From assembly GCF_002075285.3 (NCBI RefSeq), contig NZ_CP021983.2, forward strand, positions 4,560,001-4,592,000: 32,000 nt of DNA. Direction: 5' to 3'. This document shows, in pieces, positions 1-21,147 of this stretch; the stretch's first letter is position 1, and the number at the start of each line of letters is the position of its first letter. The position numbers were made by a program, and so were the translations under genes. The notes beneath the pieces are model-generated. The model did not search any database, was not told where the DNA came from, and saw only the letters and a program-made list of their open reading frames with translations. The DNA is from Halomicronema hongdechloris C2206 (lineage in GTDB: Bacteria > Cyanobacteriota > Cyanobacteriia > Phormidesmidales > Phormidesmidaceae).

Positions 1-155
1 CTCAATATCCGGTAGCCGTTTCTAGGCATTACTAGTCATGTCATCCTAGAATTTTGTGGCCACAACGCTACCCTGCCCATTCCCTAGTCCTCCCTAGCTC
101 CCCAGTCCCTTGCAATCGTCCTCACCCTTTCGCTGCAATCTACTCGGTAAGCGCC

Positions 156-2186
156 ATGGCTAACGTACCCGATCCTGCCGTCGAGCTGATTAAAACCTTT
201 GAGGGATTTAGCCGCAATGCTTATCCAGATCCCCGCACTGGCGGCAAACCCTACACCATTGGCTGGGGCAGCACCCGCAAGAAAGATGGCAGTCCCTTCG
301 AATTAGGCGACACCATTACCCCAGACCAAGCCGAAGAGCTGTTGCGGTGGCAGCTAGAAAATGAATTTTTACCTCCCCTAGAAAAGATTCCCACCTGGCC
401 TACCATGAACCAGAGGCAACGGGGGGCCATTCTCAGCTTTGCCTATAACCTAGGGGCCCATTTCTATGGGGGCAATAACTTTGCCACGATCACAGAGGTT
501 CTGAAAACCGGCAACTGGAGCAAGATTGAATCAGCCCTGGTGCTTTACCGCAATCCAGGCACTAACGTCGAGGCCGGACTGCTACGGCGACGACTCACCG
601 AGGCCCAAGTCTTTCTAGAAGGAACCTCAGGCTTAAGTCTGAGCGCAGCCGGGAAGCGTTATCTGGCTGGGGGCCAGACCCCCCAAGAGTACTTCGAGGG
701 ACCTGCTAAAGACTATGAACCGGGGGAACGCACCCTGCTGCAATCCATGCCCTACCTGCGGGGCAAAGACGTCGTCGCCTTACAGGAGGCCTTGGTCAAA
801 GCTGGTCACTCCATTAGTACAGACGGCATTTTCGGCCCAGCTACCAAACAGGCCGTAGAAGCCTTTCAAGCCGCCAACGGCCTGACGGTAGATGGCATCG
901 TCGGGGACAACACTTGGTCTGCCTTGATGGACCCCGCGGCCAACTTTACCCTGCGAATTGGCCAAGATACTCTACTGAAACTGCGCCCCGAAGACGTGAC
1001 CGAACTCTCCGAGGCCGAGGTTCACGCCGTCAGCAAAGGCAGCACCTATCCCCTGCACTCCTATGCCTATGCCGACCCTACTCAGGGCGATTTTAATGGC
1101 CATATCAAGGTCGCCTTTCAAGGCACAAACGTTAAGGGATTCAACACTTGGTTTGTCTACGGCGGTCACATTCAAGTCGAGAAAGACGGGGAAGTCGTCT
1201 ATCCTTGGGAAGAACAACAAGCCGAGTTCATTCTCAAGATCTATCGCGATACCCTATTCAAACGTCGTCCGATTCAATCGAGCCAGCTGCCAGCCACCCA
1301 GAAACACTCAGTGGCGCAAGGCAGCCAATTTGTGCTGCATTCCTATGCCTTTCAAGACGCCCATGGCGATTTCAGCAGCCACATCAAGATCGCCCTGAAA
1401 TACGAGAAAGATTTTATCAACGATCTGAGCCAGTGGTTTGTCTATGACCAGCACGCCATGGTGGAATTTGATGGACAAATTGTCTACCCGCATCTACCAC
1501 GGTTGCAAGTCACCCAAGACACCATTCTGAAACGCCGACCCCTACAGTCGTCTCAGCTACCCGATAACGAGAAATACATGATTGCCAAAGGCACCAGCTT
1601 GATCCTGCACTCCTGGGCCTACCGAGATCAGCAGGGAGATTTTAACCGCCACATCAAGTTCGCCATTAAGTACGAGCAGGACTTTATCCAGAAGTTCAGT
1701 ACCTGGTACGTCTACGACCAACATGCCCAGGTCCTCCTAGGAGATAAGGTCGTCTATCCCCCCGCCTTTCAGGGCAAAGCTTTCAAACTGCCTGGCAATA
1801 CCAGTACCTTCTATACCGGCCAGCCTATCTTGCCCAAGGGAGACTTTACCTGGGGAGAGGCGACTAAGGAGGGAACCCGGATCCCCCCGACGGCTGACAT
1901 CGTTAAAAACATCTTGGCGCTAGCCAAGCACCTGCAGCAAGCACGCGATCGCATCGGCAGTCCTTTCATCATCAACTCCTGGTATCGCACCCCAGAGGCC
2001 AACAGGGCCGCCGGCGGCCATCCCCGCAGCCTACACTTACAGGGGCAGGCCGTAGACATGGATGTACCGGGCTACAGCCCACGACAGGTAGCCAATGCCC
2101 TAATCAATACCTGGCCAGGGGGCATCTTAATCTACAGCACCCATGTTCACTTAGATACGGGCCGACGACAGGTGGTTTATATGTAA
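156..2186 (+). CDS. Multidomain peptidoglycan hydrolase: phage-type (GH24-like) lysozyme, PG_binding_1 domain, three tandem ~90-aa repeats, and a C-terminal peptidase M15-like zinc peptidase domain
   Basis: Track ORF 54..2186. ELIKTFEGF..YPD..YTIGWGS is a lysozyme signature. LRGKDVVALQEAL..DGIFGPATKQAVEAFQ..GLTVDGIVG matches the PG-binding repeat. SLHLQGQAVDMD...THVHLD matches the His/Asp/His zinc triad of M15 peptidases. I moved the start to ATG 156 (MANVPDP) because the track start at 54 is TTG and the first 34 residues carry no domain signal. Confidence 0.85.
   Translation: MANVPDPAVELIKTFEGFSRNAYPDPRTGGKPYTIGWGSTRKKDGSPFELGDTITPDQAEELLRWQLENEFLPPLEKIPTWPTMNQRQRGAILSFAYNLGAHFYGGNNFATITEVLKTGNWSKIESALVLYRNPGTNVEAGLLRRRLTEAQVFLEGTSGLSLSAAGKRYLAGGQTPQEYFEGPAKDYEPGERTLLQSMPYLRGKDVVALQEALVKAGHSISTDGIFGPATKQAVEAFQAANGLTVDGIVGDNTWSALMDPAANFTLRIGQDTLLKLRPEDVTELSEAEVHAVSKGSTYPLHSYAYADPTQGDFNGHIKVAFQGTNVKGFNTWFVYGGHIQVEKDGEVVYPWEEQQAEFILKIYRDTLFKRRPIQSSQLPATQKHSVAQGSQFVLHSYAFQDAHGDFSSHIKIALKYEKDFINDLSQWFVYDQHAMVEFDGQIVYPHLPRLQVTQDTILKRRPLQSSQLPDNEKYMIAKGTSLILHSWAYRDQQGDFNRHIKFAIKYEQDFIQKFSTWYVYDQHAQVLLGDKVVYPPAFQGKAFKLPGNTSTFYTGQPILPKGDFTWGEATKEGTRIPPTADIVKNILALAKHLQQARDRIGSPFIINSWYRTPEANRAAGGHPRSLHLQGQAVDMDVPGYSPRQVANALINTWPGGILIYSTHVHLDTGRRQVVYM
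951..1760 (+). repeat. Three in-frame tandem copies (about 92, 89 and 89 codons) of an uncharacterised module inside the hydrolase gene
   Basis: The units start near 951, 1227 and 1494. Shared columns are DT(L/I)(L/F)K(L/R)RP...KGS...LHS(Y/W)A(Y/F)...GDF..HIK.A......W(F/Y)VY..H..V.....VVYP. Confidence 0.8.
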
Positions 2187-4315: not shown

Positions 4316-4341
4316 GAAAAATTTGAACCGCCTGCGGCGGT
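4316..4341 (-). terminator. Rho-independent terminator of the caspase gene
   Basis: On the minus strand ACCGCC-gca-GGCGGT is followed by TCAAATTTTTCGGCATTTT. It lies about 55 nt downstream of the stop at 4396. Confidence 0.5.
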
Positions 4342-4395: not shown

Positions 4396-6369
4396 TTACG
4401 GTAGAGTCCTTGGGGGAGAACAGACAACGCGGAACCCGATGCTGCCGTACTGATTGTCCGGGTAGTACCTGAGGCGGCTAGCAGACCGGCAGTACCGAGG
4501 AAAGGCGCCCCAAGAACCACCCCGCAGCACCCGGCGGTCTTGATCGCCTCCCTTTAGCCAGGCAGAGCCATCCGTAGGGGCTCCTTCATAGCTACTGTGC
4601 CAGACATCCTGGCACCACTCCCAGACATTGCCATGCATGTCGTAGAGGCCGAAGGCGTTGGGGGGAAAGCGGCCGACCTCGGTGGTCTTTTGGCGATAGG
4701 TGCCTTTGGGGCCGGAGCCATAGGTATAGTTGCCGTTATAATTCGCCAGGTCCGGCGTGATCGTCTCACCAAAATGAAATGGGGTGGTGGTGCCAGCCCG
4801 GCAGGCATATTCCCACTCGGCTTCACTGGGCAGGCGGTAGGTGCGGCCCGTCTGCTCCGACAGCTTCTGACAGAAGGCCACGGCGTCTTCCCAGGACACC
4901 TTCTCCACCGGGCGATTCTCACCCTTGAACTTGCTGGGATTTTTGCCCGTGACGGCTTGATATTGCGCCTGCGTCACCGGAAACTTGCCCATCCAAAACT
5001 CAGGCACTTGCACTCGATGTTGAGGTCCTTCGTCGTCACTTCGACCTTCCTCATCTGCGGGCGCTCCCATCAAAAATTCGCCAGCGGGAATGGACACCAG
5101 TTCCAGGGTGATGCCGCTGCCCAGATCTTCGCTGCGATATTCAGCCTTTCCCTGGCGGCGCTCGGTGATGTTGCCCTGGGCATCCACCGTCACCGTCTCA
5201 AACTCGAAGGTGGGGGCTTCATTTTTTGAGGGGGCCGGAGGAGCAGGTGATGTCGCTGGTTGCAATGGCTGAGGTCCTCGTAAGAGAGCTTCAACCACAG
5301 GAAACTCTTTGTCTACCTGCTTAATCACCGGCTGCAAGTCCTCATCCCGCAGGTTTAGCGATGTCTGAAGCCGTTTCAGCACCCTGATGGCTGGCTCATC
5401 CAGGGGAAACGTCATCTCAATTTCTTCCCGCAGAGCAGCTTCGTATTCGGCTAAGTTCGCTGCCTTTTCTTGGAAGGGTCTTAGCACTGAGGCTTCGATG
5501 GTTGCAGCCGCGTCAGCGCTGAGGTTTAGGACTTGCCGTTTTTGTTTTAGGACTCGGCGGCCAGCCCCAAAAATCTTGCCCCCGCGAACGACCGACTGCA
5601 CCTCTTTGCGGTAAAGTTGCTCGGCGTCAATCACCGCCTTGGCCACGAGGATATCGCGGCCCTGCTTGGCGTTGAAAATCACCGGTTCCATGGCTGGGGC
5701 GGCGGCGCGGACGCTGGCGCGCACATAGTCATGCCAATCACCCACGGAAATAGCTGCTTTGGCTTCCGGGGCGGCCCCCCCGGTTTTGAGCCCTTCTACC
5801 AAATAGCGGGTGTAGACCGAGAGGGGTTCTCCTTCTTGTTCCAGGGCATAGCGGGTAGAGGTGGAGGCCGCCAACACACACCAGCCCTTGCCGCCCAACT
5901 GGGTTTCGACATCGATGCGGCTGTCATCCATGCCCAGAAAGCCCTCGGCGAAGGCGGCCCCAAAGCAACAGTCCAGAATCACGACTTTGCGCTGGGCTAC
6001 GGAGTTATTGATGACTCGTTTGATAAACTCGGCTTCCAGGGCGGTCCCGGCATTGATGCGGCCATTCTCGAAGAGCTGAGAGTCGGCCGTGGTGAGATAA
6101 AACTCTCCCGACATGTCTTTGATGCCATGGCCAGTGAAATAGAGCAACCCTAAATCCGGCTGGGAGAGCTGGTTGAAGACTTCGGCAATGCGACGACGGG
6201 CCGTGCCCACATCGGGGTTGCGCAGCGGTATCACCTGATCGAAACCGCCGATATGGTTATCCTCCAGGACCTGCCTCAGGGCCTCGACACCATTGATGGG
6301 GCAGTTGAGAGGGGGTAAACCTTTGCCGTATTTCCCTACCCCGATCAATAGTGCGATTTTGCGTCCCAT
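4396..6369 (-). CDS. Caspase-family (peptidase C14, orthocaspase) protein fused to a C-terminal FGE-sulfatase (SUMF1-like) domain
   Basis: 657 aa. The N-terminal caspase fold has YFTGHG (His81) and VILDCCFG (Cys134/135). A helical linker covers about residues 240-380. The C-terminal domain has WMGKFPVTQAQY...WEDAVAFCQKLS...YRLPSEAEWEYACRAG...GLYDMHGNVWEWCQD...RVLRGGSW, the FGE-sulfatase signature. Confidence 0.9.
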   Translation of the reverse strand: MGRKIALLIGVGKYGKGLPPLNCPINGVEALRQVLEDNHIGGFDQVIPLRNPDVGTARRRIAEVFNQLSQPDLGLLYFTGHGIKDMSGEFYLTTADSQLFENGRINAGTALEAEFIKRVINNSVAQRKVVILDCCFGAAFAEGFLGMDDSRIDVETQLGGKGWCVLAASTSTRYALEQEGEPLSVYTRYLVEGLKTGGAAPEAKAAISVGDWHDYVRASVRAAAPAMEPVIFNAKQGRDILVAKAVIDAEQLYRKEVQSVVRGGKIFGAGRRVLKQKRQVLNLSADAAATIEASVLRPFQEKAANLAEYEAALREEIEMTFPLDEPAIRVLKRLQTSLNLRDEDLQPVIKQVDKEFPVVEALLRGPQPLQPATSPAPPAPSKNEAPTFEFETVTVDAQGNITERRQGKAEYRSEDLGSGITLELVSIPAGEFLMGAPADEEGRSDDEGPQHRVQVPEFWMGKFPVTQAQYQAVTGKNPSKFKGENRPVEKVSWEDAVAFCQKLSEQTGRTYRLPSEAEWEYACRAGTTTPFHFGETITPDLANYNGNYTYGSGPKGTYRQKTTEVGRFPPNAFGLYDMHGNVWEWCQDVWHSSYEGAPTDGSAWLKGGDQDRRVLRGGSWGAFPRYCRSASRLRYYPDNQYGSIGFRVVCSPPRTLP

Positions 6370-6379
6370 GCCTGCTGCG

Positions 6380-6581
6380 CTAGTCTTTGGTGAGTTCTTT
6401 GGCCGCTGCCACTAGTGTATCCAGAGTATTGTCGAGATCTTCCGGACAGAGGCTTTTAACCTGGCTTGATGACCTCAATGGCCGTCTCTAGCAGATCAAC
6501 CTTGAAGCCCCAGGCAATAATGCCTATGACTGGGCTGCAATGCCCACCTACACGACTTCTAGCCGCAAGGGCAGGACTCAT
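6380..6581 (-). pseudogene. Decayed EACC1-like gene: a middle segment plus the C-terminal ~27 codons, in two different frames
   Basis: Minus-strand translation gives ...QVKSLCPEDLDNTLDTLVAAAKELTKD* (stop at 6380-6382). This parallels ISVKNLRPADLDATLDKLVAAAQDLANDSP at the end of the 9424..9819 product. A shifted frame gives SRVGGHCSPVIGIIAWGFKVDLLETAIEVIKPG, which parallels NRVADPQVPAGGMGVAAWLWSILTAEITIEGIKALG. About 24 codons between the two segments are missing, as is the N-terminal part. Over 65 nt, 6386..6450 versus 9445..9509, I count 50 identical positions. Confidence 0.55.
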
Positions 6582-6641
6582 GCACTGTCGCCCGCCTGAA
6601 ATGATAGCTATCATCCTAGGAGACGGGTTACGAAATCAACT

Positions 6642-6857
6642 ATGGTAGATGACTCAAAGGTTCAGTACATTTCTGACGAACAGGGTGAGGTGACCGGGGT
6701 TATCTTACCGATTCAGCTTTGGCAAAGCATTCTTGGCGAGCTTGAAACCCAACATCTGTTAAAGAGTGACACGATGCGGCAGCGCCTACTAGACGCTAAA
6801 CAGCGATCAGAGGGAATAGCCTTTGAAACCGCGTTGACTCAGCTAGGTCTGGAATGA
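6642..6857 (+). CDS. Type II antitoxin, short Phd/YefM-like partner of YoeB
   Basis: 71 aa. The C-terminal half, ELETQHLLKSDTMRQRLLDAKQRSEG, parallels E. coli YefM [27 protein letters not shown]. Its stop overlaps the toxin start (ATGA at 6854-6857). Confidence 0.7.
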   Translation: MVDDSKVQYISDEQGEVTGVILPIQLWQSILGELETQHLLKSDTMRQRLLDAKQRSEGIAFETALTQLGLE

Positions 6858-7156
6858 AGCCTATTGAGTTTGACCCGAATGCCTTCGAAGACCTAGCTTG
6901 GTGGATTCAGCAAGATCGTAAAATCGCTCTTCGTATTATTAAATTGATTAGAGAGATTCAGCGCACGCCATTTATAGGCACTGGAAAACCAGAACCTCTG
7001 AAACATGAGTTAAAAGGATGCTGGTCTCGACGTATTACCCAAGAACATCGCCTTGTCTATGAAGTAGGCAAAGAGCATACAGCATTTCCTTACTGGGTGA
7101 GGTACAGCCTATCTCCTGATATCAAGGGTTTCATAGTCATCCGTGTACCTCACTAG
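6854..7156 (+). CDS. yoeB: Txe/YoeB family toxin with an atypical C-terminus
   Basis: DLAWWIQQDRKIALRIIKLIREIQRTPFIGTGKPEPLKHELKGCWSRRITQEHRLVYEV is collinear with E. coli YoeB up to ..EHRLVY.V. After about nt 7066 the sequence diverges, runs about 16 residues long, and has no ..CRYHY end. Confidence 0.75.
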   Translation: MKPIEFDPNAFEDLAWWIQQDRKIALRIIKLIREIQRTPFIGTGKPEPLKHELKGCWSRRITQEHRLVYEVGKEHTAFPYWVRYSLSPDIKGFIVIRVPH

Positions 7157-7302
7157 CTTCAAAAACGCTGTATTCGCATCTTGGAATGCCTACCCTACGT
7201 TGTCTTCAAAGCGCAGTAATTAGAGCGACAATATTAGTAAGATCGCTGGCACTATATTTTCACGGTTAACTGCCCTGAGTCAGCCTTACCGCCTGCTAAG
7301 TT

Positions 7303-8454
7303 ATGAAGATCAGCCTGCAACCGACACTTTTGCGCTGGGCGCGAGAACGCGCCGGCATGAGTGTAGACGTGTTGGCTAAGAAAATGAGCGTCAAGCCAGA
7401 GCGGATCACAGGCTGGGAAGCAAGCGGAGAGCTGACCTTCAAGCAAGCCCAGAAGCTAGCAGATATAACCCATACACCTTTTGGTTATCTTTATCTTCCA
7501 GAGCCGCCTCGAGAGACCCTCTCCATTCCCGACTTCCGCACCCTCCGAAATGAGGAAATGCGGCGGCCCAGTCCCGATCTGCTCGAGATTCTGAATCAGG
7601 CTCAACAAATTCAGAGTTGGTTTCGCGATGAATTGCTCGCCCGAGGTGAAACCCCCTTGTCCTTTGTGGGTAGTTTGCCTGTGGACATATCGATTAAAGC
7701 AGCGGCTGATCGCATCCGCGAGGTGATCAACTTTGAAGCCAGTCGAGATGCTCGTCCCTGGGAGGATGCACTCAAGCTGCAAACCGAGCAAATTGAGTCC
7801 ACAGGCGTGTTGGTTATGCGGAACAGCGTTGTCGGCGCCAATAATTGCCGCAAGCTTTCTGTAGATGAATTTCGGGGCTTTGCGCTGTCTGATGACTATG
7901 CGCCTCTGATCTTCATCAATTCTAGCGACTCTAAAGGAGCCCAGATATTTACCCTGGCCCATAAACTAGTGCATATTTGGGTGGGCGTATCTGGCATTTC
8001 TAACTTCGATAAAACCTATGCCGACCATGACGACCTTGAACGATTCTGTAACCAGGTTGCTGCTGAGTTACTTGTCCCAGCCGCTGAATTAAGAGATGCC
8101 TGGGCTGAGGCAGCGTCTCAAGAAGATTGGTTGCAACCTTTGACTCAGCGTTTCAAGGTCAGCACCCTGGTGGTTTTGCGCCGATTAAACGACCAAGAAT
8201 TGATTTCTAACAGTACCTTCCAGCAGCGTTATCAAGCTGAGCAGGAACGCTTTCAGGTCTCTGCTAATGAGCAAACAGGCGGAGGAGACTTTTATCGCAC
8301 GCAAATCTCTCGGTTTAGTAATCAATTTCTCATGGCCTTGGTGGAGAGCACCTTAGAGGGGCGTACCCCTTATCGAGATGCACTTAGGCTACTCAAGCTA
8401 TCTAAGGTCGAAACCTTTAAGCAGCTTGCAAGGGAACTTTCGGTCTCTGTCTAA
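7303..8454 (+). CDS. XRE-type HTH domain fused to an ImmA/IrrE (DUF955) metallopeptidase-like domain, with the HExxH motif changed to HKxxH
   Basis: 383 aa. The N-terminal HTH reads LLRWARERAGMSVDVLAKKMSV...TFKQAQKLADI. The peptidase core reads FRGFALSD..APLIFINS......QIFTLAHKLVHIWVG. The Lys codon AAA at 7963-7965 sits where the catalytic Glu is expected. Confidence 0.8.
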   Translation: MKISLQPTLLRWARERAGMSVDVLAKKMSVKPERITGWEASGELTFKQAQKLADITHTPFGYLYLPEPPRETLSIPDFRTLRNEEMRRPSPDLLEILNQAQQIQSWFRDELLARGETPLSFVGSLPVDISIKAAADRIREVINFEASRDARPWEDALKLQTEQIESTGVLVMRNSVVGANNCRKLSVDEFRGFALSDDYAPLIFINSSDSKGAQIFTLAHKLVHIWVGVSGISNFDKTYADHDDLERFCNQVAAELLVPAAELRDAWAEAASQEDWLQPLTQRFKVSTLVVLRRLNDQELISNSTFQQRYQAEQERFQVSANEQTGGGDFYRTQISRFSNQFLMALVESTLEGRTPYRDALRLLKLSKVETFKQLARELSVSV

Positions 8455-8461
8455 TACTCCA

Positions 8462-8743
8462 ATGGCCTATCTCCTCGACACCAATATATTTATTCAAGCC
8501 AAGAATGATTATTACGGCTTTGACCTGTGTCCGGGATTTTGGGCTTGGTTAGAGCAGCAGAATGAAGCAAATACGGTGTTTACCCATGAAGTCTTCAATC
8601 CTAGGCAACCGGGACGTCGAAAGATCAAAATTCCAGCGGTCTGCCATACTTTTGAAGTTCCCTATATCCGAATTTTTGAGATGTTACGTAAAGAGGGAGC
8701 CTTGTTTGTCTTAGAGGCTGCTTTAAAGCCTGAGAGACAGTAA
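8462..8743 (+). pseudogene. DUF4411 (PIN-like) gene with a large in-frame internal deletion
   Basis: MAYLLDTNIFIQAKNDYYGFDLCPGFWAWLEQQNEANTVF is the DUF4411 N-terminus. It joins directly (near nt 8581) to the C-terminal THEV....KIKIPAVCHTFEVPYIRIFEMLRKEGALFVL. The product is 93 aa, whereas I recall about 150-170 aa for the family. I chose the in-frame ATG at 8462 inside track ORF 8378..8743. Confidence 0.6.
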
Positions 8744-8845: not shown

Positions 8846-9427
8846 CTAAGCGGCCCAGAGCAGCGATAGGGATACCATAAATTCGGGCAGAACGGCTTCC
8901 CCAGATAATTGCTCAGGATTGTCTAATACTTCGATGGTGCCGCCCTCACGAAAAATGCCAACCCGGCGCTGTTGAGGATCGATGAGCCAACCCAGGCGAG
9001 TGCCGTTGGCCTGATATTCCTGTAGCTTGGCATAGCCATCTTGCCAGCGATCGCTGGGCGACAGCAGCTCCACCGCAAAGTCAGGGCACAGGGGCAAGAA
9101 CCGCTGGCGCTGATCTGGGGTGAGCTCGTCCCAGCGGTGGTGAGGAATCCAGGCGGCATCGGGTGAGCGGATAGCGCCATTGGGCAGCACAAACCCGGTG
9201 GAGGAGTCAAAGGTGACGCCCAGCTGCGTTCGGCGATTCCACAGGTTCAGTTCTGCGTTCAAATCGGAGCTGCGCTTGCCGGTTTCTCCCCCCGTCGGTG
9301 GCATGATGATCAACTCTCCAGTGGCCGTCCGCTCCAGCTGCACATCAGGATTGTGGGCACAGAGCCGCAGGAACTGATCATCGGTCAGTTGCACCACCGA
9401 ATTGAGATTCAAGGTCAGCGTGCTCAT
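8846..9427 (-). CDS. Uma2 family (DUF820) PD-(D/E)xK restriction-endonuclease-like protein
   Basis: 193 aa. Family-typical features are E...GELIIMPPTGGETG, ....P.GAIRSPDAAWI and PDFAVELLSPSD (the nuclease core), followed by K...Y...G...GWLIDP..R.V. Confidence 0.85.
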   Translation of the reverse strand: MSTLTLNLNSVVQLTDDQFLRLCAHNPDVQLERTATGELIIMPPTGGETGKRSSDLNAELNLWNRRTQLGVTFDSSTGFVLPNGAIRSPDAAWIPHHRWDELTPDQRQRFLPLCPDFAVELLSPSDRWQDGYAKLQEYQANGTRLGWLIDPQQRRVGIFREGGTIEVLDNPEQLSGEAVLPEFMVSLSLLWAA

Positions 9428-9819
9428 GGGGAATCGTTGGCCAAATCTTGGGCCGCTGCCACTAGTTTATCCAGGGTGGCATCGAGATCCGCTGGGCGCA
9501 GGTTTTTAACGCTAATGGATTTGCCTCCGGCCTCTAGGGTGAACTCGATGGGCTTTCCCGGCAGGCGGGCCTGGACATCCTGGCCCAGGGCCTTAATCCC
9601 CTCGATGGTGATCTCGGCGGTGAGAATGCTCCACAGCCAAGCAGCAACTCCCATGCCGCCAGCGGGTACTTGGGGGTCGGCCACCCGGTTGATCTGGTCC
9701 ACCTCGTCTAGCTGGCTGAGATCTTGAAAGAGGCTGGTGGTGATGGTTTCTTGGTGGTCTAGGGGCACATCAGCCATGCCTTGACGCCAGTCGATGGTTA
9801 ACCTCACCCGCTTAGCCAT
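9424..9819 (-). CDS. EACC1-like small protein (effector-associated constant component type)
   Basis: 131 aa. The pattern is an acidic N-terminal part, then P..GGMGV..W.. (small hydrophobic segment), then ...IEFTLEAGGKSISVKNLRPADLDATLDKLV. This fits my recollection of the EACC1 family and is not verified by any search. GGAG lies 9 nt upstream of the ATG. The stop overlaps the Uma2 start (ATGA, 9424-9427). Confidence 0.55.
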   Translation of the reverse strand: MAKRVRLTIDWRQGMADVPLDHQETITTSLFQDLSQLDEVDQINRVADPQVPAGGMGVAAWLWSILTAEITIEGIKALGQDVQARLPGKPIEFTLEAGGKSISVKNLRPADLDATLDKLVAAAQDLANDSP

Positions 9820-9824
9820 GGGTT

Positions 9825-10123
9825 TTAGCTCCGTGCTTGATAGTCAGGGGACTGTGCCAGGCTCAAGCTAGCATTTTGCTTAGTGTAGAGCCACCTAGCT
9901 GTCAATAACTCCACTAAGTCAGCTTTCTTTACTTTGGAATAGCCAGCCAGCTGATGCTGCTTTGCCATTTGCCGTAACTGCTGCGTGCTAAATGATTCCA
10001 GGAGTTTAGCCCGGATATCTCACGAGAGAAGAGGAATCGGGGGTCATGCAATCTAAGTTGCTGTCTTAGCGTAACCTCATCCAGCTCAATCGCCATTGAC
10101 GCGCCAACCGACGGTCTCTCCAC
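9825..10123 (-). pseudogene. Possible frameshifted small ORF with a Rho_N/SAP-like C-terminal motif, ending 5 nt upstream of the EACC1-like gene
   Basis: Track ORF 9929..10123 (MAIELDEVTLRQQLRLHDPRFLFSREIS..) continues sensibly only after a frame change near 10020. The shifted frame reads ..RAKLLESFSTQQLRQMAKQHQLAGYSKVKKADLVELLTAR.., with its stop at 9825-9827. The pattern L..LA...gi.GYSK..KA.L...L is Rho_N-like. Confidence 0.25.
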
Positions 10124-10206
10124 TTTTCAAGCCGGTTCCAGCATTCAAAGTCGTATCAAGGCACTTTTTTAGAGTTATCCGCAGCCGGCAGAGGTTTTGT
10201 CAGTGC

Positions 10207-11109
10207 TTACCGCAGGGCAAACTTGCGCACGGCGAGCAGACTGCCCATCAGTCCCACGATGCTGCCTAGAGAAAACAGGGACACTGGCAATAGCAGGGAT
10301 TGCTGGACGGTGAGTTGCAGGCCATTGACCAGGAATTGCACGAAATCTGGCTGCTGGGCCACTAGTTCCTCAATAAATCGATGGATCCCCAACAAACAGC
10401 CCCAGGAAATGCCGGCGCCGACGATACCAAAGCAGGCCCCTTGCAGGATGAATGGCAAGTAAATCCAAGCGGCGGTGGCGCCGACCAGCTGCATCACTTC
10501 GATCTCACGGCGGCGGGCCAACACGATCAGGCGAATTGTGGTGGTGATGACGGCCATGGCGGTGAGGCTAAGCAGGGTAATCACGCCAATGCTGACCCAG
10601 CGCAATCCTTGATTTAGTTGGGCCAGGCGCTGGACGGCTTCGTCGATGTAGCTAACCTCATCCACCCCTTGCAGAGTCGTCAGTTGGTCGGCCAGGGCGG
10701 GGACATCCTCGGAAGAGCGGGCCTTGACCTTGAGCTCATCCACTAAGGGATTGCCATTGAGTTGTTCGGTGGCCCCTTCGATGTCGGCAAGGCCCAGGTC
10801 GTCTACTAGGGCTTCCCAGGCCTCCTCTTTGCTGACAGTGGTCACTTGCATCACCTCGGGCATGGCCTCTACCGTGGGACGCAGGGTATCCGCCGGGATG
10901 CCGCTCTCTAAATAGGCAGAGACTTCTAATTGGCTGCCGAATTGGTTGAGCAGGCTTTCCAGCTGCCAGGTGGATTGCAGGCTGATGCCGAAGAGGAACA
11001 GCAGCACCGTAATCGTACTGACGGCGGCCCAATTCATCCAACCACCCCGGCGCAGGCCTAGGAGGGTTTCCCGTAGCAAATAGTCAAGCTTGGTGAAGAA
11101 TTTGAGCAT
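10207..11109 (-). CDS. ftsX: Cell-division ABC-type permease-like protein FtsX
   Basis: 300 aa. It has the N-terminus RETLLGLRRGGWMNWAAVSTI, a periplasmic loop, then three C-terminal TM helices with REIEVMQLVGATAAWI. This is the typical FtsX layout. Confidence 0.85.
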   Translation of the reverse strand: MLKFFTKLDYLLRETLLGLRRGGWMNWAAVSTITVLLFLFGISLQSTWQLESLLNQFGSQLEVSAYLESGIPADTLRPTVEAMPEVMQVTTVSKEEAWEALVDDLGLADIEGATEQLNGNPLVDELKVKARSSEDVPALADQLTTLQGVDEVSYIDEAVQRLAQLNQGLRWVSIGVITLLSLTAMAVITTTIRLIVLARRREIEVMQLVGATAAWIYLPFILQGACFGIVGAGISWGCLLGIHRFIEELVAQQPDFVQFLVNGLQLTVQQSLLLPVSLFSLGSIVGLMGSLLAVRKFALR

Positions 11110-20613: not shown

Positions 20614-21147
20614 ATGTATTATACCATTCCATTTGAAAGCCCATCGATGTCACGGCGGCAATTGCTGAACTTCCTGACGGGTGCTGCGGTGGCGGCTACC
20701 GTAGGTTCAGCCCTATATCCTGCCGCTAAATTCTTGGTGCCGCCCTCAGAGGTGAGTGAAGGCGGGGGTACTCTGGCGAAAGATCAACACGGCACCCCGA
20801 TTCCCGCCAGTCAACTCTTAGCCGAACCCCCCGGAACTCGGGCGTTGATTGCCGGACTCGCCAGCGAGCCCACCTATCTCACCGTTAAAGACGATGGCAC
20901 GTTAGAGCCTATAGGCATCGTCAATAACTGCACTCACCTGGGCTGCACCTTTCCGTGGAATCCCCTGGATCAGCAGTTTCAATGTCCATGTCACGGCTCG
21001 CGCTACACGCCAGATGGGGTTGTGGTGCGGGGACCGGCTAATCTGCCGCTGAAGCTTGCGCATGTGGCTGTGAAGGATGACGCCATTTGGCTGTATCCCT
21101 GGACGGAGACTGACCCTCGCACAGGCGAACCGCCCTGGTGGGTTTAG
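20614..21147 (+). CDS. petC: Cytochrome b6f-type Rieske iron-sulfur protein paralogue (PetC-like, not in a petCA operon)
   Basis: Track ORF 20551..21147. I prefer the ATG at 20614, preceded by AGGAGG. It has the SRRQLLNFL twin-Arg/TM anchor and Rieske boxes CTHLGC and CPCHGS. It is collinear with PetC through to the ..WTETD.RTGE.PWW end. No petA follows. Confidence 0.8.
   Translation: MYYTIPFESPSMSRRQLLNFLTGAAVAATVGSALYPAAKFLVPPSEVSEGGGTLAKDQHGTPIPASQLLAEPPGTRALIAGLASEPTYLTVKDDGTLEPIGIVNNCTHLGCTFPWNPLDQQFQCPCHGSRYTPDGVVVRGPANLPLKLAHVAVKDDAIWLYPWTETDPRTGEPPWWV

Follow-up and report, generated by a model that had tools for sequence, protein, structure and literature searches.

The caspase-CLec gene of the window, i.e. 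the whole 32-kb stretch of DNA that was analysed, probably encodes a sensor-protease of an EACC1-caspase cell-suicide system of the abortive-infection type, whose sensor surface was written by a diversity-generating retroelement (DGR); we put the probability of this reading at roughly 75%. Cell-suicide defence genes of this family are known from cyanobacteria, and the architecture has already been described (Kaur 2020, PMC7159879; Vallota-Eastman 2020, PMC7517822; Evans 2025, bioRxiv 10.1101/2025.11.14.688446). The gene and its main parts are located as follows:

4396..6369, reverse strand: caspase-CLec gene, 657 aa, open reading frame with ATG start; putative sensor-protease of an EACC1-caspase system
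5704..6363, reverse strand: Peptidase_C14 caspase domain, residues 3-222 (Pfam)
6127..6129, reverse strand: codon of the catalytic His81
5965..5967, reverse strand: codon of the catalytic Cys135
5224..5625, reverse strand: helical linker (residues 249-363) and disordered hinge (residues 366-382), from AF2 secondary structure and pLDDT
4423..5211, reverse strand: all-beta N-terminal extension (residues 387-434) and FGE-fold C-type lectin core (residues 435-649), from Pfam, Foldseek and AF2

Two Pfam domains are recognized in the 657-aa protein, namely Peptidase_C14 (residues 3-222, E 1.7e-15) and FGE-sulfatase (residues 423-649, E 1.3e-59). The fusion of a caspase with an FGE-sulfatase-like domain, which the initial annotation had proposed, is thus borne out by Pfam and by the 657-aa open reading frame. 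The protein scores 152.2 bits against the NCBIfam model NF047832, 'caspase, EACC1-associated type' (cutoff 140), and only the generic 'caspase' model of PADLOC is matched. The AF2 model has a mean pLDDT of 91.3. The linker and hinge segment between the two domains has no Pfam match, and column entropy peaks here, at the highest values of the whole protein. There are 1,558 homologs of caspase-CLec; residue conservation and the spectra of variable sites were computed from 120 homologs.

The catalytic His81 (YFTGHG) and Cys135 (LDCCFG) are invariant in these 120 homologs (120/120), and the neighbouring Cys134 is retained in 111 of them. The His/Cys dyad, initially described as intact, is therefore so: neither residue is replaced. 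The YFTGHG motif aligns with YYAGHG of MALT1, whose caspase domain is matched by Foldseek at E-values of 1e-11 to 1e-12, and the caspase domain evolves with a dN/dS of 0.10 relative to L004, the locus of the closest homolog. In the model for the one characterised EACC1-associated caspase, the cut in EACC1 falls after Asp49 (Evans 2025, 10.1101/2025.11.14.688446), so that basic-P1 cleavage should not be assumed for caspase-CLec. The Arg/Lys fluorogenic assay suggested for it may therefore be the wrong one, all the more so as p131, the EACC1-like protein discussed below, carries a conserved Asp48-Pro49 in its flexible loop.

The putative EACC1-like partner and the genomic neighbourhood

The region upstream of caspase-CLec contains the following features:

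6380..6598, reverse strand: degraded EACC1-like remnant, 5'-truncated, broken up over two or more reading frames and interrupted by in-frame stops
6642..8743, forward strand: toxin-antitoxin-like block on the opposite strand, between the Uma2 gene and the EACC1 remnant (Pfam and NCBIfam)
6642..6857, forward strand: RelB/YefM-like gene
6854..7156, forward strand: YoeB
7303..8454, forward strand: HTH+M78 gene
8378..8743, forward strand: DUF4411 gene
8846..9427, reverse strand: Uma2-family (restriction-endonuclease-fold) gene (Pfam Uma2, E 3e-45)
9424..9819, reverse strand: p131, intact EACC1-like gene 3 kb upstream of caspase-CLec; putative latent pore-forming substrate

It had been proposed that an EACC1-like gene formerly preceded the caspase. 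Tblastn and frame translations agree with this for the adjacent copy, which is a frameshifted remnant that ends in a stop codon 10 nt ahead of the start of the caspase gene: residues 101-129 of p131 match positions 6383..6469 with 62% identity (E 6e-6), while a match to its residues 56-76 is found in another frame of the remnant. However, 'formerly' does not hold for the locus as a whole, as p131 is intact and encoded on the same strand 3 kb upstream. The remnant is homologous to a 59-aa open reading frame at L004, where the EACC1 layout is the same except for the toxin-antitoxin genes, the block at 6642..8743 being absent from L004 by synteny comparison. As the adjacent EACC1 copy is degraded at L004 as well, next to an intact DGR, its loss appears to be old and compatible with function.

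In 13 of 15 distinct loci, the gene directly upstream of the caspase is p131-like, and five of these caspases have no FGE domain. p131 itself has no Pfam or NCBIfam match, even at E<=10; the top Pfam family of its relatives is PF19953 (EACC1), yet only 3 of 20 relatives match it, with a best E-value of 4e-4. Membership of p131 in the EACC1 family is therefore putative and transitive; EACC1 of the cyanobacterial branch has diverged too far to match the Pfam or NCBIfam EACC1 models directly. A further, weak p131-like tblastn match in the window (20654..20827, E 0.087) runs antisense to PetC/Rieske, and we regard it as a chance match. In the AF2 model (pLDDT 86.5), p131 adopts an alpha+beta fold with a single flexible loop at residues 48-60, at the start of which Asp48-Pro49 is at least 90% conserved.

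In the phage-triggered EACC1-KrAvs12 system of Ktedonobacter, EACC1 is a pore-forming toxin, which is freed by cleavage by its partner caspase (Evans 2025, 10.1101/2025.11.14.688446). The conserved loop Asp of p131 is found at about position 48, and the cleavage site modelled for the Ktedonobacter protein is Asp49. By analogy, p131 is likely the substrate and effector of caspase-CLec; however, coupling of the two is not assured, since p131 is 3 kb away and Uma2 and the opposite-strand toxin-antitoxin genes stand between them. The window locus shares the caspase subtype with a variable C-terminal sensor with the EACC1-caspase systems ('System 4' in Kaur 2020; Evans 2025), as well as the alpha+beta partner of around 130 amino acids, which is encoded 5' of the caspase in relatives. 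It differs in its sensor, which is a DGR-type lectin instead of an Avs/STAND module, and in its adjacent EACC1, which is a remnant, whereas the intact copy lies 3 kb upstream behind Uma2 and the toxin-antitoxin genes.

The Uma2 gene overlaps the stop codon of p131 by ATGA and is syntenic with L004, where Uma2 is truncated. The designation of the region as a 'conflict island' is fair given its content of YefM/YoeB, HTH-M78 and DUF4411, Uma2 and the DUF4160/DUF2442 genes. HSP20 is also a neighbour of caspase-CLec.

For cyanobacterial DGR targets, signalling has been put forward as an alternative to defence, the argument being that they tune the response to signals (Vallota-Eastman 2020, PMC7517822). 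Accordingly, caspase-CLec might be a regulatory protease, whose lectin tunes how a ligand from the cell itself or from the environment is recognised, and which processes cellular substrates in stress or differentiation signalling rather than in abortive infection. The HSP20 neighbour and the homeostatic roles proposed for orthocaspases would fit such a function; however, we consider it improbable, since it is with EACC1 that caspases of this subtype are specifically paired, the locus is dense in toxin-antitoxin and nuclease genes, and experiments on the phage-triggered system identified EACC1 as a pore-forming toxin released by a protease (Evans 2025).

DGR footprint and downstream hairpin

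At the 3' end of caspase-CLec and directly downstream of it, two further features were identified:

4405..4534, reverse strand: equivalent of the variable region (VR), aligned with the L004 VR (7902-8031) and TR (9797-9926)
4317..4341, reverse strand: GC-rich hairpin ACCGCC-GCA-GGCGGT (4327..4341) followed by TCAAATTTTT, 54 nt past the stop codon

At L004, the gene of the closest homolog (75% identity) is directly followed by the accessory gene bAvd, a reverse transcriptase (RT) and a template repeat (TR), and 15 of the 16 mismatches between TR and VR are found at TR adenines, in codon positions 1-2. Twelve codons are hypervariable, namely those of residues 621, 622, 623, 626, 631, 633, 635, 639, 641, 642, 643 and 644. 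In the window, all codons at the TR-AAY sites are NNY, i.e. NNC or NNT (12/12; P about 1e-3, given the codon usage of caspase-CLec). Across the 120 homologs, 96-100% of the residues at the 12 sites are reachable from AAY, and K, E, Q, M and W together account for 1.5% there, compared with 24.3% at other high-entropy sites. The dN/dS is 2.66 at the 12 sites versus 0.16 in the lectin core and 0.20 in the VR scaffold; both the caspase and the lectin domain are under purifying selection. Adenine-biased TR/VR pairs are also present in the same lectin family at loci L011, L031, L039, L047, L057 and L078. Homology to the intact L004 DGR locus, together with the codon and residue footprint, indicates that the 12 variable sites of the window gene were written by adenine-specific DGR mutagenesis. 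The orthocaspase N-terminus, the C-terminal CLec of FGE-sulfatase type with the VR equivalent at the 3' end, and the NNY footprint are shared with cyanobacterial DGR variable proteins and their orthocaspase-bearing paralogs (Vallota-Eastman 2020; category 'b' FGE-sulfatase CLec1 targets of Wu 2018, PMC5758913), as is the existence of a close homolog whose Avd-RT-TR cassette is intact.

A DGR cassette was searched for in the window. Blastn with the last 260 nt of the gene (word size 7, E<=10) found only the self-match and thus no TR in the 32-kb window, tblastn with the L004 proteins gave no match for RT or bAvd at E<=1e-2, and the other large open reading frames of the window are housekeeping genes only, with no RT or Avd according to Pfam. 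Adenine-free TR backbone patterns, that of the window VR included, had 0 matches in genome and metagenome contig collections without the source genome. Remote DGR targets that lack an adjacent RT or Avd are known (Vallota-Eastman 2020, PMC7517822), and the window gene fits the class 'remote VP / paralog with remnant homology and no proximal RT' rather than that of DGR-internal targets. As RT, Avd and TR are absent from the 32-kb window, the window copy is either orphaned, i.e. a receptor 'frozen' after loss of the DGR, or the remote target of a DGR located elsewhere. More tentatively, it could be a 'frozen' lectin receptor with the memory of an invader ligand or an active remote target marked by its hairpin on the 5.6-Mb chromosome, a proposal that we regard as possible rather than probable.

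The hairpin was initially taken to be the gene's own terminator. A hairpin with a T-run is indeed present; however, DGR targets also carry a GC-rich hairpin downstream of the VR (Guo 2011), and the element could just as well be a hairpin of this DGR kind as an intrinsic terminator, or serve as both. Terminator-like sites are not enriched in the region, with 4 found versus 3.2 expected from shuffles. The position of the hairpin is kept in about 20 related loci, five of which are DGR-adjacent, and the stems differ in sequence yet stay complementary. The phage DGR hairpins have a stem of 7-10 bp and a 4-nt loop and are located 4-34 bp from the VR (Guo 2011), whereas the window hairpin, with its 6 bp stem and 3-nt loop, does not reach this length and stands farther from the VR.

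Alternatively, the locus might be a decaying relic, in which caspase-CLec has lost its DGR and its adjacent EACC1, has been left without a functional partner and is on its way to becoming a pseudogene. The degraded adjacent EACC1 and the absence of a DGR are in line with this, as are the toxin-antitoxin genes that separate caspase-CLec from the intact p131 and the decay of a DGR within the same family at locus L007, where an Avd fragment is found but no RT. However, the 657-codon reading frame is intact, the dyad is invariant, all conserved scaffold residues are present and dN/dS is 0.10-0.20 outside the variable sites. Furthermore, the EACC1 remnant is degraded at L004 despite an intact DGR, and an intact p131 has been kept both there and in the window. 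Progressive decay is therefore unlikely.

The lectin domain in comparison with formylglycine-generating enzymes

Two codons of the lectin domain are of interest for the comparison with formylglycine-generating enzymes (FGEs):

4504..4506, reverse strand: codon of Ala622
4489..4491, reverse strand: codon of Cys627

The AF2 model contains beta strands at residues 387-434, and an all-beta extension is the hallmark of TvpA-type domains (Kaur 2020, PMC7159879); with this extension and its core, the lectin domain is of the TvpA-like type described in that study. Among PDB sequences, PvdO (5hha) is the best match (E 5e-44), and TvpA (2y3c) is matched as well. The structural comparison with Foldseek yields TM-scores of 0.80 for PvdO and 0.76 for TvpA (rmsd 2.2 A), compared with 0.60-0.69 (rmsd 4-6 A, probability 1.0) for true FGEs; the Foldseek matches include the copper-bound FGE structures 6muj, 6s07 and 5ssz. 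The FGE activity requires both active-site cysteines, Cys336 and Cys341 in the human enzyme, which jointly bind Cu(I). In the HMMER alignment with wild-type human FGE, GGSWGAFPRYC pairs with GGSYMCHRSYC, which places Ala622 at Cys336 and Cys627 at Cys341. The observation that only the second cysteine is present is therefore correct, and caspase-CLec combines the FGE-sulfatase fold with the absence of the two-cysteine pair.

Cys627 is kept in 117 of the 120 homologs. Compared with FGE, three residues are missing right after it, and human FGE Cys235, presumably the structural disulfide partner of Cys346, is aligned with the invariant Cys523; for these reasons, Cys627 may belong to the scaffold and not be a genuine equivalent of Cys341. 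Its codon is an adenine-free TGC in the L004 template, and the residue is also present in TvpA, which points to a protected scaffold residue common to both proteins.

The lectin domain shares the fold and the motifs WEY, HGNVWEW, RGGSW and GFR with the FGEs of human (SUMF1), S. coelicolor and T. curvata; it differs from them by the three-residue deletion and by the lack of a Cys336 equivalent in 120/120 family members. The missing first cysteine had been interpreted as a loss of FGE catalysis. This does not follow, since residue 622 is a DGR variable site, whose codon is AAC in the L004 TR and which is thus programmed to be hypervariable; its identity in a single copy is uninformative on catalysis. 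The notion of an FGE that has lost a cysteine is likewise at odds with the fold, which is nearer to PvdO and TvpA than to the FGEs. The other part of that claim, a non-enzymatic ligand-binding module joined to a caspase, is supported: the lectin domain is almost certainly such a module and belongs to the TvpA/PvdO-like C-type-lectin clade diversified by DGRs, and it is not a decayed FGE. An enzymatic function like that of PvdO was considered and rejected, as the domain reaches 183 bits against the NCBIfam PvdO model with its 500-bit cutoff and the VR footprint favours binding. PvdO has the FGE fold but neither catalytic cysteine; it acts in pyoverdine maturation in the periplasm and carries neither a caspase nor a VR. 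Treponema denticola TvpA (2y3c) has the same FGE-fold C-type lectin and the RGGSW...C...R...GFR scaffold with its retained Cys; however, TvpA is a stand-alone surface lipoprotein, whereas the window lectin is joined to a caspase and resides in the cytoplasm. According to Wu 2018 (PMC5758913), TvpA does not generate formylglycine.

That the protein is instead a former FGE, turned into a fixed sensor of a small molecule or peptide after ordinary decay had removed one of its catalytic cysteines and with no retroelement involved, is very unlikely and largely refuted by the TR/VR pair and residue spectrum: although the alignment of Ala622 and Cys627 with the two FGE cysteines and the absence of DGR components from the window would suit it, site 622 is among the 12 sites with an AAY-mutagenesis spectrum in 120 homologs, its codon is AAC in the TR of a 75%-identical homolog, Cys occurs there in 0/120 homologs and the fold is nearer to TvpA and PvdO.

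Proposed mechanism and biological meaning

For the preferred reading, a DGR-written sensor-protease of an EACC1-caspase system, the following sequence of events is proposed. The TvpA-type lectin surface, formed by the 12 sites between residues 621 and 644, would bind a ligand derived from the invader. The lectin domain is tethered to the His81/Cys135 caspase by the helical linker and the flexible hinge, and ligand binding would activate the caspase, probably by oligomerisation. The active caspase would then cut the exposed loop of p131, either at Asp48 or close to it, and the released C-terminal fragment would form membrane pores and thereby lead to cell death. For the caspase-CLec clade, we infer the ligand, the activation, the cleavage site and the pore formation from the distant KrAvs12 of Ktedonobacter, which is of the actinobacterial type.

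Although the window locus adds no new category, it offers a clean case of a DGR-orphaned or remote target that is under strong purifying selection and for which a DGR-linked ortholog is available for comparison. If the receptor is 'frozen', it would represent a hard-wired memory of one invader ligand, which is coupled to EACC1-mediated cell death. If it is a remote target, the conserved hairpin and the TC(G/A)A-T-run element would mark a still-active DGR target. In either case, the window locus and the DGR-linked L004 would form a before-and-after pair for the question of what DGR-written sensors recognise.

The analysis also corrects the database names "SUMF1/EgtB/PvdO family nonheme iron enzyme" and "formylglycine-generating enzyme" under which such proteins are found. 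Judged by their catalytic cysteines alone, proteins with this lectin domain would be classed as broken enzymes. They are better seen as antibody-like, retroelement-written sensors, which are wired to a caspase and probably, via EACC1, to a pore-forming death effector. The logic of caspase-CLec and EACC1 would thus be a bacterial parallel to the receptor-caspase-gasdermin arrangement.

The caspase-CLec gene and its putative EACC1-like partner

The locus comprises the following features:

4396..6369, minus strand: caspase-CLec ORF, 657 aa
4317..4341, minus strand: hairpin element (stem 4327..4341 plus tail) with a 6-bp GC stem and a 3-nt loop, then TCAAATTTTT
6380..6598, minus strand: degraded EACC1 remnant, directly 5' of the caspase ATG
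8846..9427, minus strand: full-length Uma2 gene (restriction-endonuclease fold), ATGA overlap with the p131 stop codon
9424..9819, minus strand: p131, intact EACC1-like ORF, 131 aa
3490..3967, plus strand: overlapping DUF4160/DUF2442 ORFs, shortly past the 3' end of the caspase gene and oriented against it
54..2186, plus strand: multidomain peptidoglycan hydrolase, 710 aa

The caspase-CLec protein consists of a Peptidase_C14 domain (residues 3-222, E 1.7e-15) and an FGE-sulfatase domain (residues 423-649, E 1.3e-59; both Pfam). It matches the NCBIfam model NF047832, 'caspase, EACC1-associated type', with 152.2 bits (cutoff 140); its scores for the NCBIfam models of PvdO, GldK and EgtB are all far under the cutoffs. 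A database search retrieved 1,558 relatives, and alignment and conservation counts refer to the best 120 of these, all of which possess both Pfam domains and whose named organisms are nearly all cyanobacterial (Leptolyngbya, Phormidesmis, Nostoc, Adonisia and others). The catalytic dyad is intact and conserved, as the initial annotation had proposed: His81 and Cys135 are invariant in the best 120 relatives, and Cys134 is retained in 111 of them. Foldseek matched the N-terminal half to the caspase domain of MALT1, and the motif YFTGHG aligns to MALT1 YYAGHG, which presumably contains the catalytic His415 of MALT1.

It had also been suggested that an EACC1-like gene once preceded the caspase, which is borne out by the degraded remnant. 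Its final 29 codons (6383..6469) share 62% identity with the p131 C-terminus and its stop codon lies 10 nt before the caspase start; an earlier piece is found in a different frame and the N-terminal third is absent. The same remnant, a 59-aa ORF, is present at L004, the locus of the closest homolog. In 13 of 15 distinct loci with a caspase, the gene directly 5' of it is a p131 homolog, and since five of these caspases lack the lectin domain, p131 travels with the caspase module. No Pfam or NCBIfam model matched p131 itself; PF19953 (EACC1) is the top Pfam family of 20 p131 relatives, 3 of which matched (best E 4e-4). The AF2 model of p131 (pLDDT 86.5, pTM 0.80) predicts an alpha+beta protein in which one low-confidence loop (48-60) separates an N-terminal beta-alpha-beta unit (4-47) from a C-terminal beta-alpha-beta-beta-alpha unit. 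Asp48-Pro49, where the loop begins, shows conservation of at least 90% among 50 close homologs; more distant homologs do not all have Asp48.

EACC1 and caspase were defined as a two-gene system with variable C-terminal modules by Kaur et al. 2020, and the mechanism was experimentally supported by Evans et al. 2025: in Ktedonobacter, EACC1 is cleaved by its partner caspase at a site modelled at Asp49, and the C-terminal fragment proved toxic and made liposomes permeable. Some EACC1-protease pairs are linked to diversity-generating retroelements (DGRs; Evans et al. 2025). With a probability of roughly 75%, the locus encodes an EACC1-caspase cell-suicide system with a DGR-written lectin sensor; the individual mechanistic steps are less certain. 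By analogy to these two studies, binding of a ligand to the lectin surface would activate the caspase, which would cut p131 in the exposed loop, and the C-terminal fragment would form membrane pores, thereby leading to abortive-infection-type death. Cleavage is expected at Asp-P1 rather than Arg/Lys-P1. That the protein is instead a regulatory protease without a role in defence seems unlikely.

Neighbouring genes

The minus-strand order is p131, Uma2, EACC1 remnant and caspase-CLec. The ATGA overlap suggests translational coupling of p131 and Uma2, whose order is common to L004, where Uma2 is truncated. Uma2 may have been inserted here, or it may serve the EACC1 module as a second effector. 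Four plus-strand genes of toxin-antitoxin type (RelB/YefM-like, YoeB, HTH+M78 and DUF4411) occupy the interval between Uma2 and the remnant and are missing from L004; since the L004 Uma2 is truncated, a deletion in L004 accounts for at least part of this difference. The YoeB-like toxin (6854..7156, plus strand) follows its Pfam model as far as position 71 of 80 and departs from it thereafter, and the DUF4411 (PIN-like) ORF (8378..8743, plus strand) has 121 aa and two stretches matching the 159-position model; both toxins may be truncated, the former at its C-terminal end.

The DUF4160/DUF2442 pair, an HSP20 gene and the large peptidoglycan hydrolase (Pfam) lie 3' of caspase-CLec. The pair resembles a small two-gene toxin-antitoxin-like module, and together with Uma2 and the four toxin-antitoxin-type genes it makes 'conflict island' a fair description of the locus. 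The hydrolase combines Phage_lysozyme, PG_binding_1, three internal repeats of ~100 aa, each terminating in ...WFVYxxHxxVxxDGxxVYP, and Peptidase_M15, and resembles endolysin-type enzymes, here in a chromosomal setting.

A lectin surface written by a diversity-generating retroelement

The largest class of DGR targets are FGE-type CLec domains with protease partners (Wu 2018). Metacaspase-FGE-sulfatase fusions were catalogued in 2012 (33 sequences; Asplund-Samuelsson), and variable proteins of cyanobacteria, as well as their paralogs, were already described as carrying orthocaspase N-termini (Vallota-Eastman 2020). The gene of the closest homolog (P0002, 75% identity) at L004 is directly followed by a bAvd accessory gene and a reverse transcriptase (RT) gene. 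A 130-nt direct repeat forms the variable region (VR, 7902-8031, the last 130 nt of the gene) and the template repeat (TR, 9797-9926, just past the RT). Fifteen of 16 TR/VR mismatches are at TR adenines, all in positions 1-2 of AAY codons, a pattern that defines a DGR.

The window codons at the 12 TR-AAY sites (GGC, GCC, TTT, TAC, AGC, CTC, TAC, AAT, TAC, GGC, AGC and ATC) are all NNY and reachable from AAY via changes in positions 1-2 (P ~1e-3, given the codon usage of the gene). In the best 120 of 1,558 homologs, these sites are occupied by AAY-reachable residues in 96-100% of cases, and K/E/Q/M/W make up 1.5% compared to 24.3% at equally variable other sites of the domain. Comparison of the window gene with L004 gives a dN/dS of 2.66 for the 12 sites, in contrast to 0.10 for the caspase, 0.16 for the lectin core and 0.20 for the VR scaffold. 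Adenine-biased TR/VR pairs are found with the same lectin family at six more loci (L011, L031, L039, L047, L057 and L078). The residue spectrum, the dN/dS contrast and these pairs add support for a DGR origin; taken with the L004 repeat pair and the codon footprint, the evidence shows a DGR-written variable surface, and both caspase and lectin domains are under purifying selection. The low ratios outside the 12 sites make a decaying relic improbable, as does L004, which likewise has a degraded EACC1 remnant, yet keeps a live DGR.

A cis DGR is absent at the window gene: neither a second VR copy nor RT or Avd was found within the 32-kb window, and synteny with L004 ends exactly at the VR end (window 4405 = L004 8031). 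The adenine-free VR backbone had no match in genome and metagenome collections, from which the window's own VR is likewise absent. The gene is thus either an orphaned former DGR target or a remote target. Compared to known EACC1-caspase systems and DGR targets, it is particular only in the absent DGR cassette and the displaced EACC1. DGR decay also occurs in the same gene family at L007, where an Avd fragment (10185-10418; 74% identity to L004 bAvd) follows a caspase-FGE homolog and an RT is missing. Segments duplicated ~1 kb apart at L004 (9766-9818/11026-11078, RT 3' end plus TR 5' end; 152 nt, 10117-10268/11077-11228) flank a HepT/MNT toxin-antitoxin pair, suggesting that the pair inserted within the DGR cassette and that duplication accompanied this.

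The initial annotation assigned the gene its own terminator. The hairpin exists at 4327..4341, and it could be a terminator, a DGR homing hairpin or both. Similar hairpins (5-7 bp GC stem, 3-4 nt loop, TC(G/A)A-T-run tail) occur 30-70 nt past the stop codon in ~20 related loci (e.g. L004 8085-8115, L031, L039, L047 and L064), their stems differing with complementarity kept. They are found with and without an adjoining DGR, including the five loci whose adjacent DGR is intact and oriented like the target gene. Terminator-like GC hairpins 3' of the VR are needed for DGR homing; those of phage combine a stem of 7-10 bp with a 4-nt loop, at a distance of 4-34 bp to the VR (Guo et al. 2011), whereas the window hairpin is shorter and farther from the VR.

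Fold of the lectin domain and the cysteine position

In the AF2 model of the caspase-CLec protein (mean pLDDT 91.3), an all-beta extension (387-434) precedes the FGE-like core, a signature tying such 'FGS' domains to TvpA (Kaur et al. 2020). TvpA, a DGR target of Treponema denticola, is the second-best PDB match of the protein. In Foldseek comparisons, the modelled lectin domain is closer to PvdO (TM 0.80) and TvpA (TM 0.76, rmsd 2.2 A) than to any true FGE (TM 0.60-0.69, rmsd 4-6 A). According to Wu et al. 2018, TvpA lacks formylglycine-generating activity and is regarded as a binding module.

Cysteines 500, 523, 586, 627 and 650 are conserved in 120, 120, 119, 117 and 96 of the 120 homologs. 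The human FGE counterparts of Cys500 and Cys523 in the alignment are Cys218 and Cys235, presumably structural-disulfide cysteines; the putative partners Cys650 and Cys627 are each offset by two residues from the human partner positions. These possible pairs are placed in a cytoplasmic domain.

The absence of the first FGE cysteine and presence of the second hold up: HMMER pairs GGSWGAFPRYC with GGSYMCHRSYC of wild-type human FGE, placing Ala622 at the Cys336 and Cys627 at the Cys341 position. In the L004 TR, the Ala622 counterpart is AAC and that of Cys627 is TGC, which contains no adenine and is therefore shielded from DGR mutagenesis. The earlier sensor reading stands as a ligand-binding module on a dyad-intact caspase, but not as a decayed enzyme, since the Cys336 site is DGR-variable. 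A plain degenerate FGE sensor is very improbable: the TR/VR, codon, residue, selection and fold evidence identifies a DGR-diversified TvpA-type domain. The 'missing catalytic cysteine' is thus a programmed hypervariable position of the ligand-binding surface and no enzyme lesion, and the cysteine pattern in such proteins should not be taken as a sign of enzyme decay.
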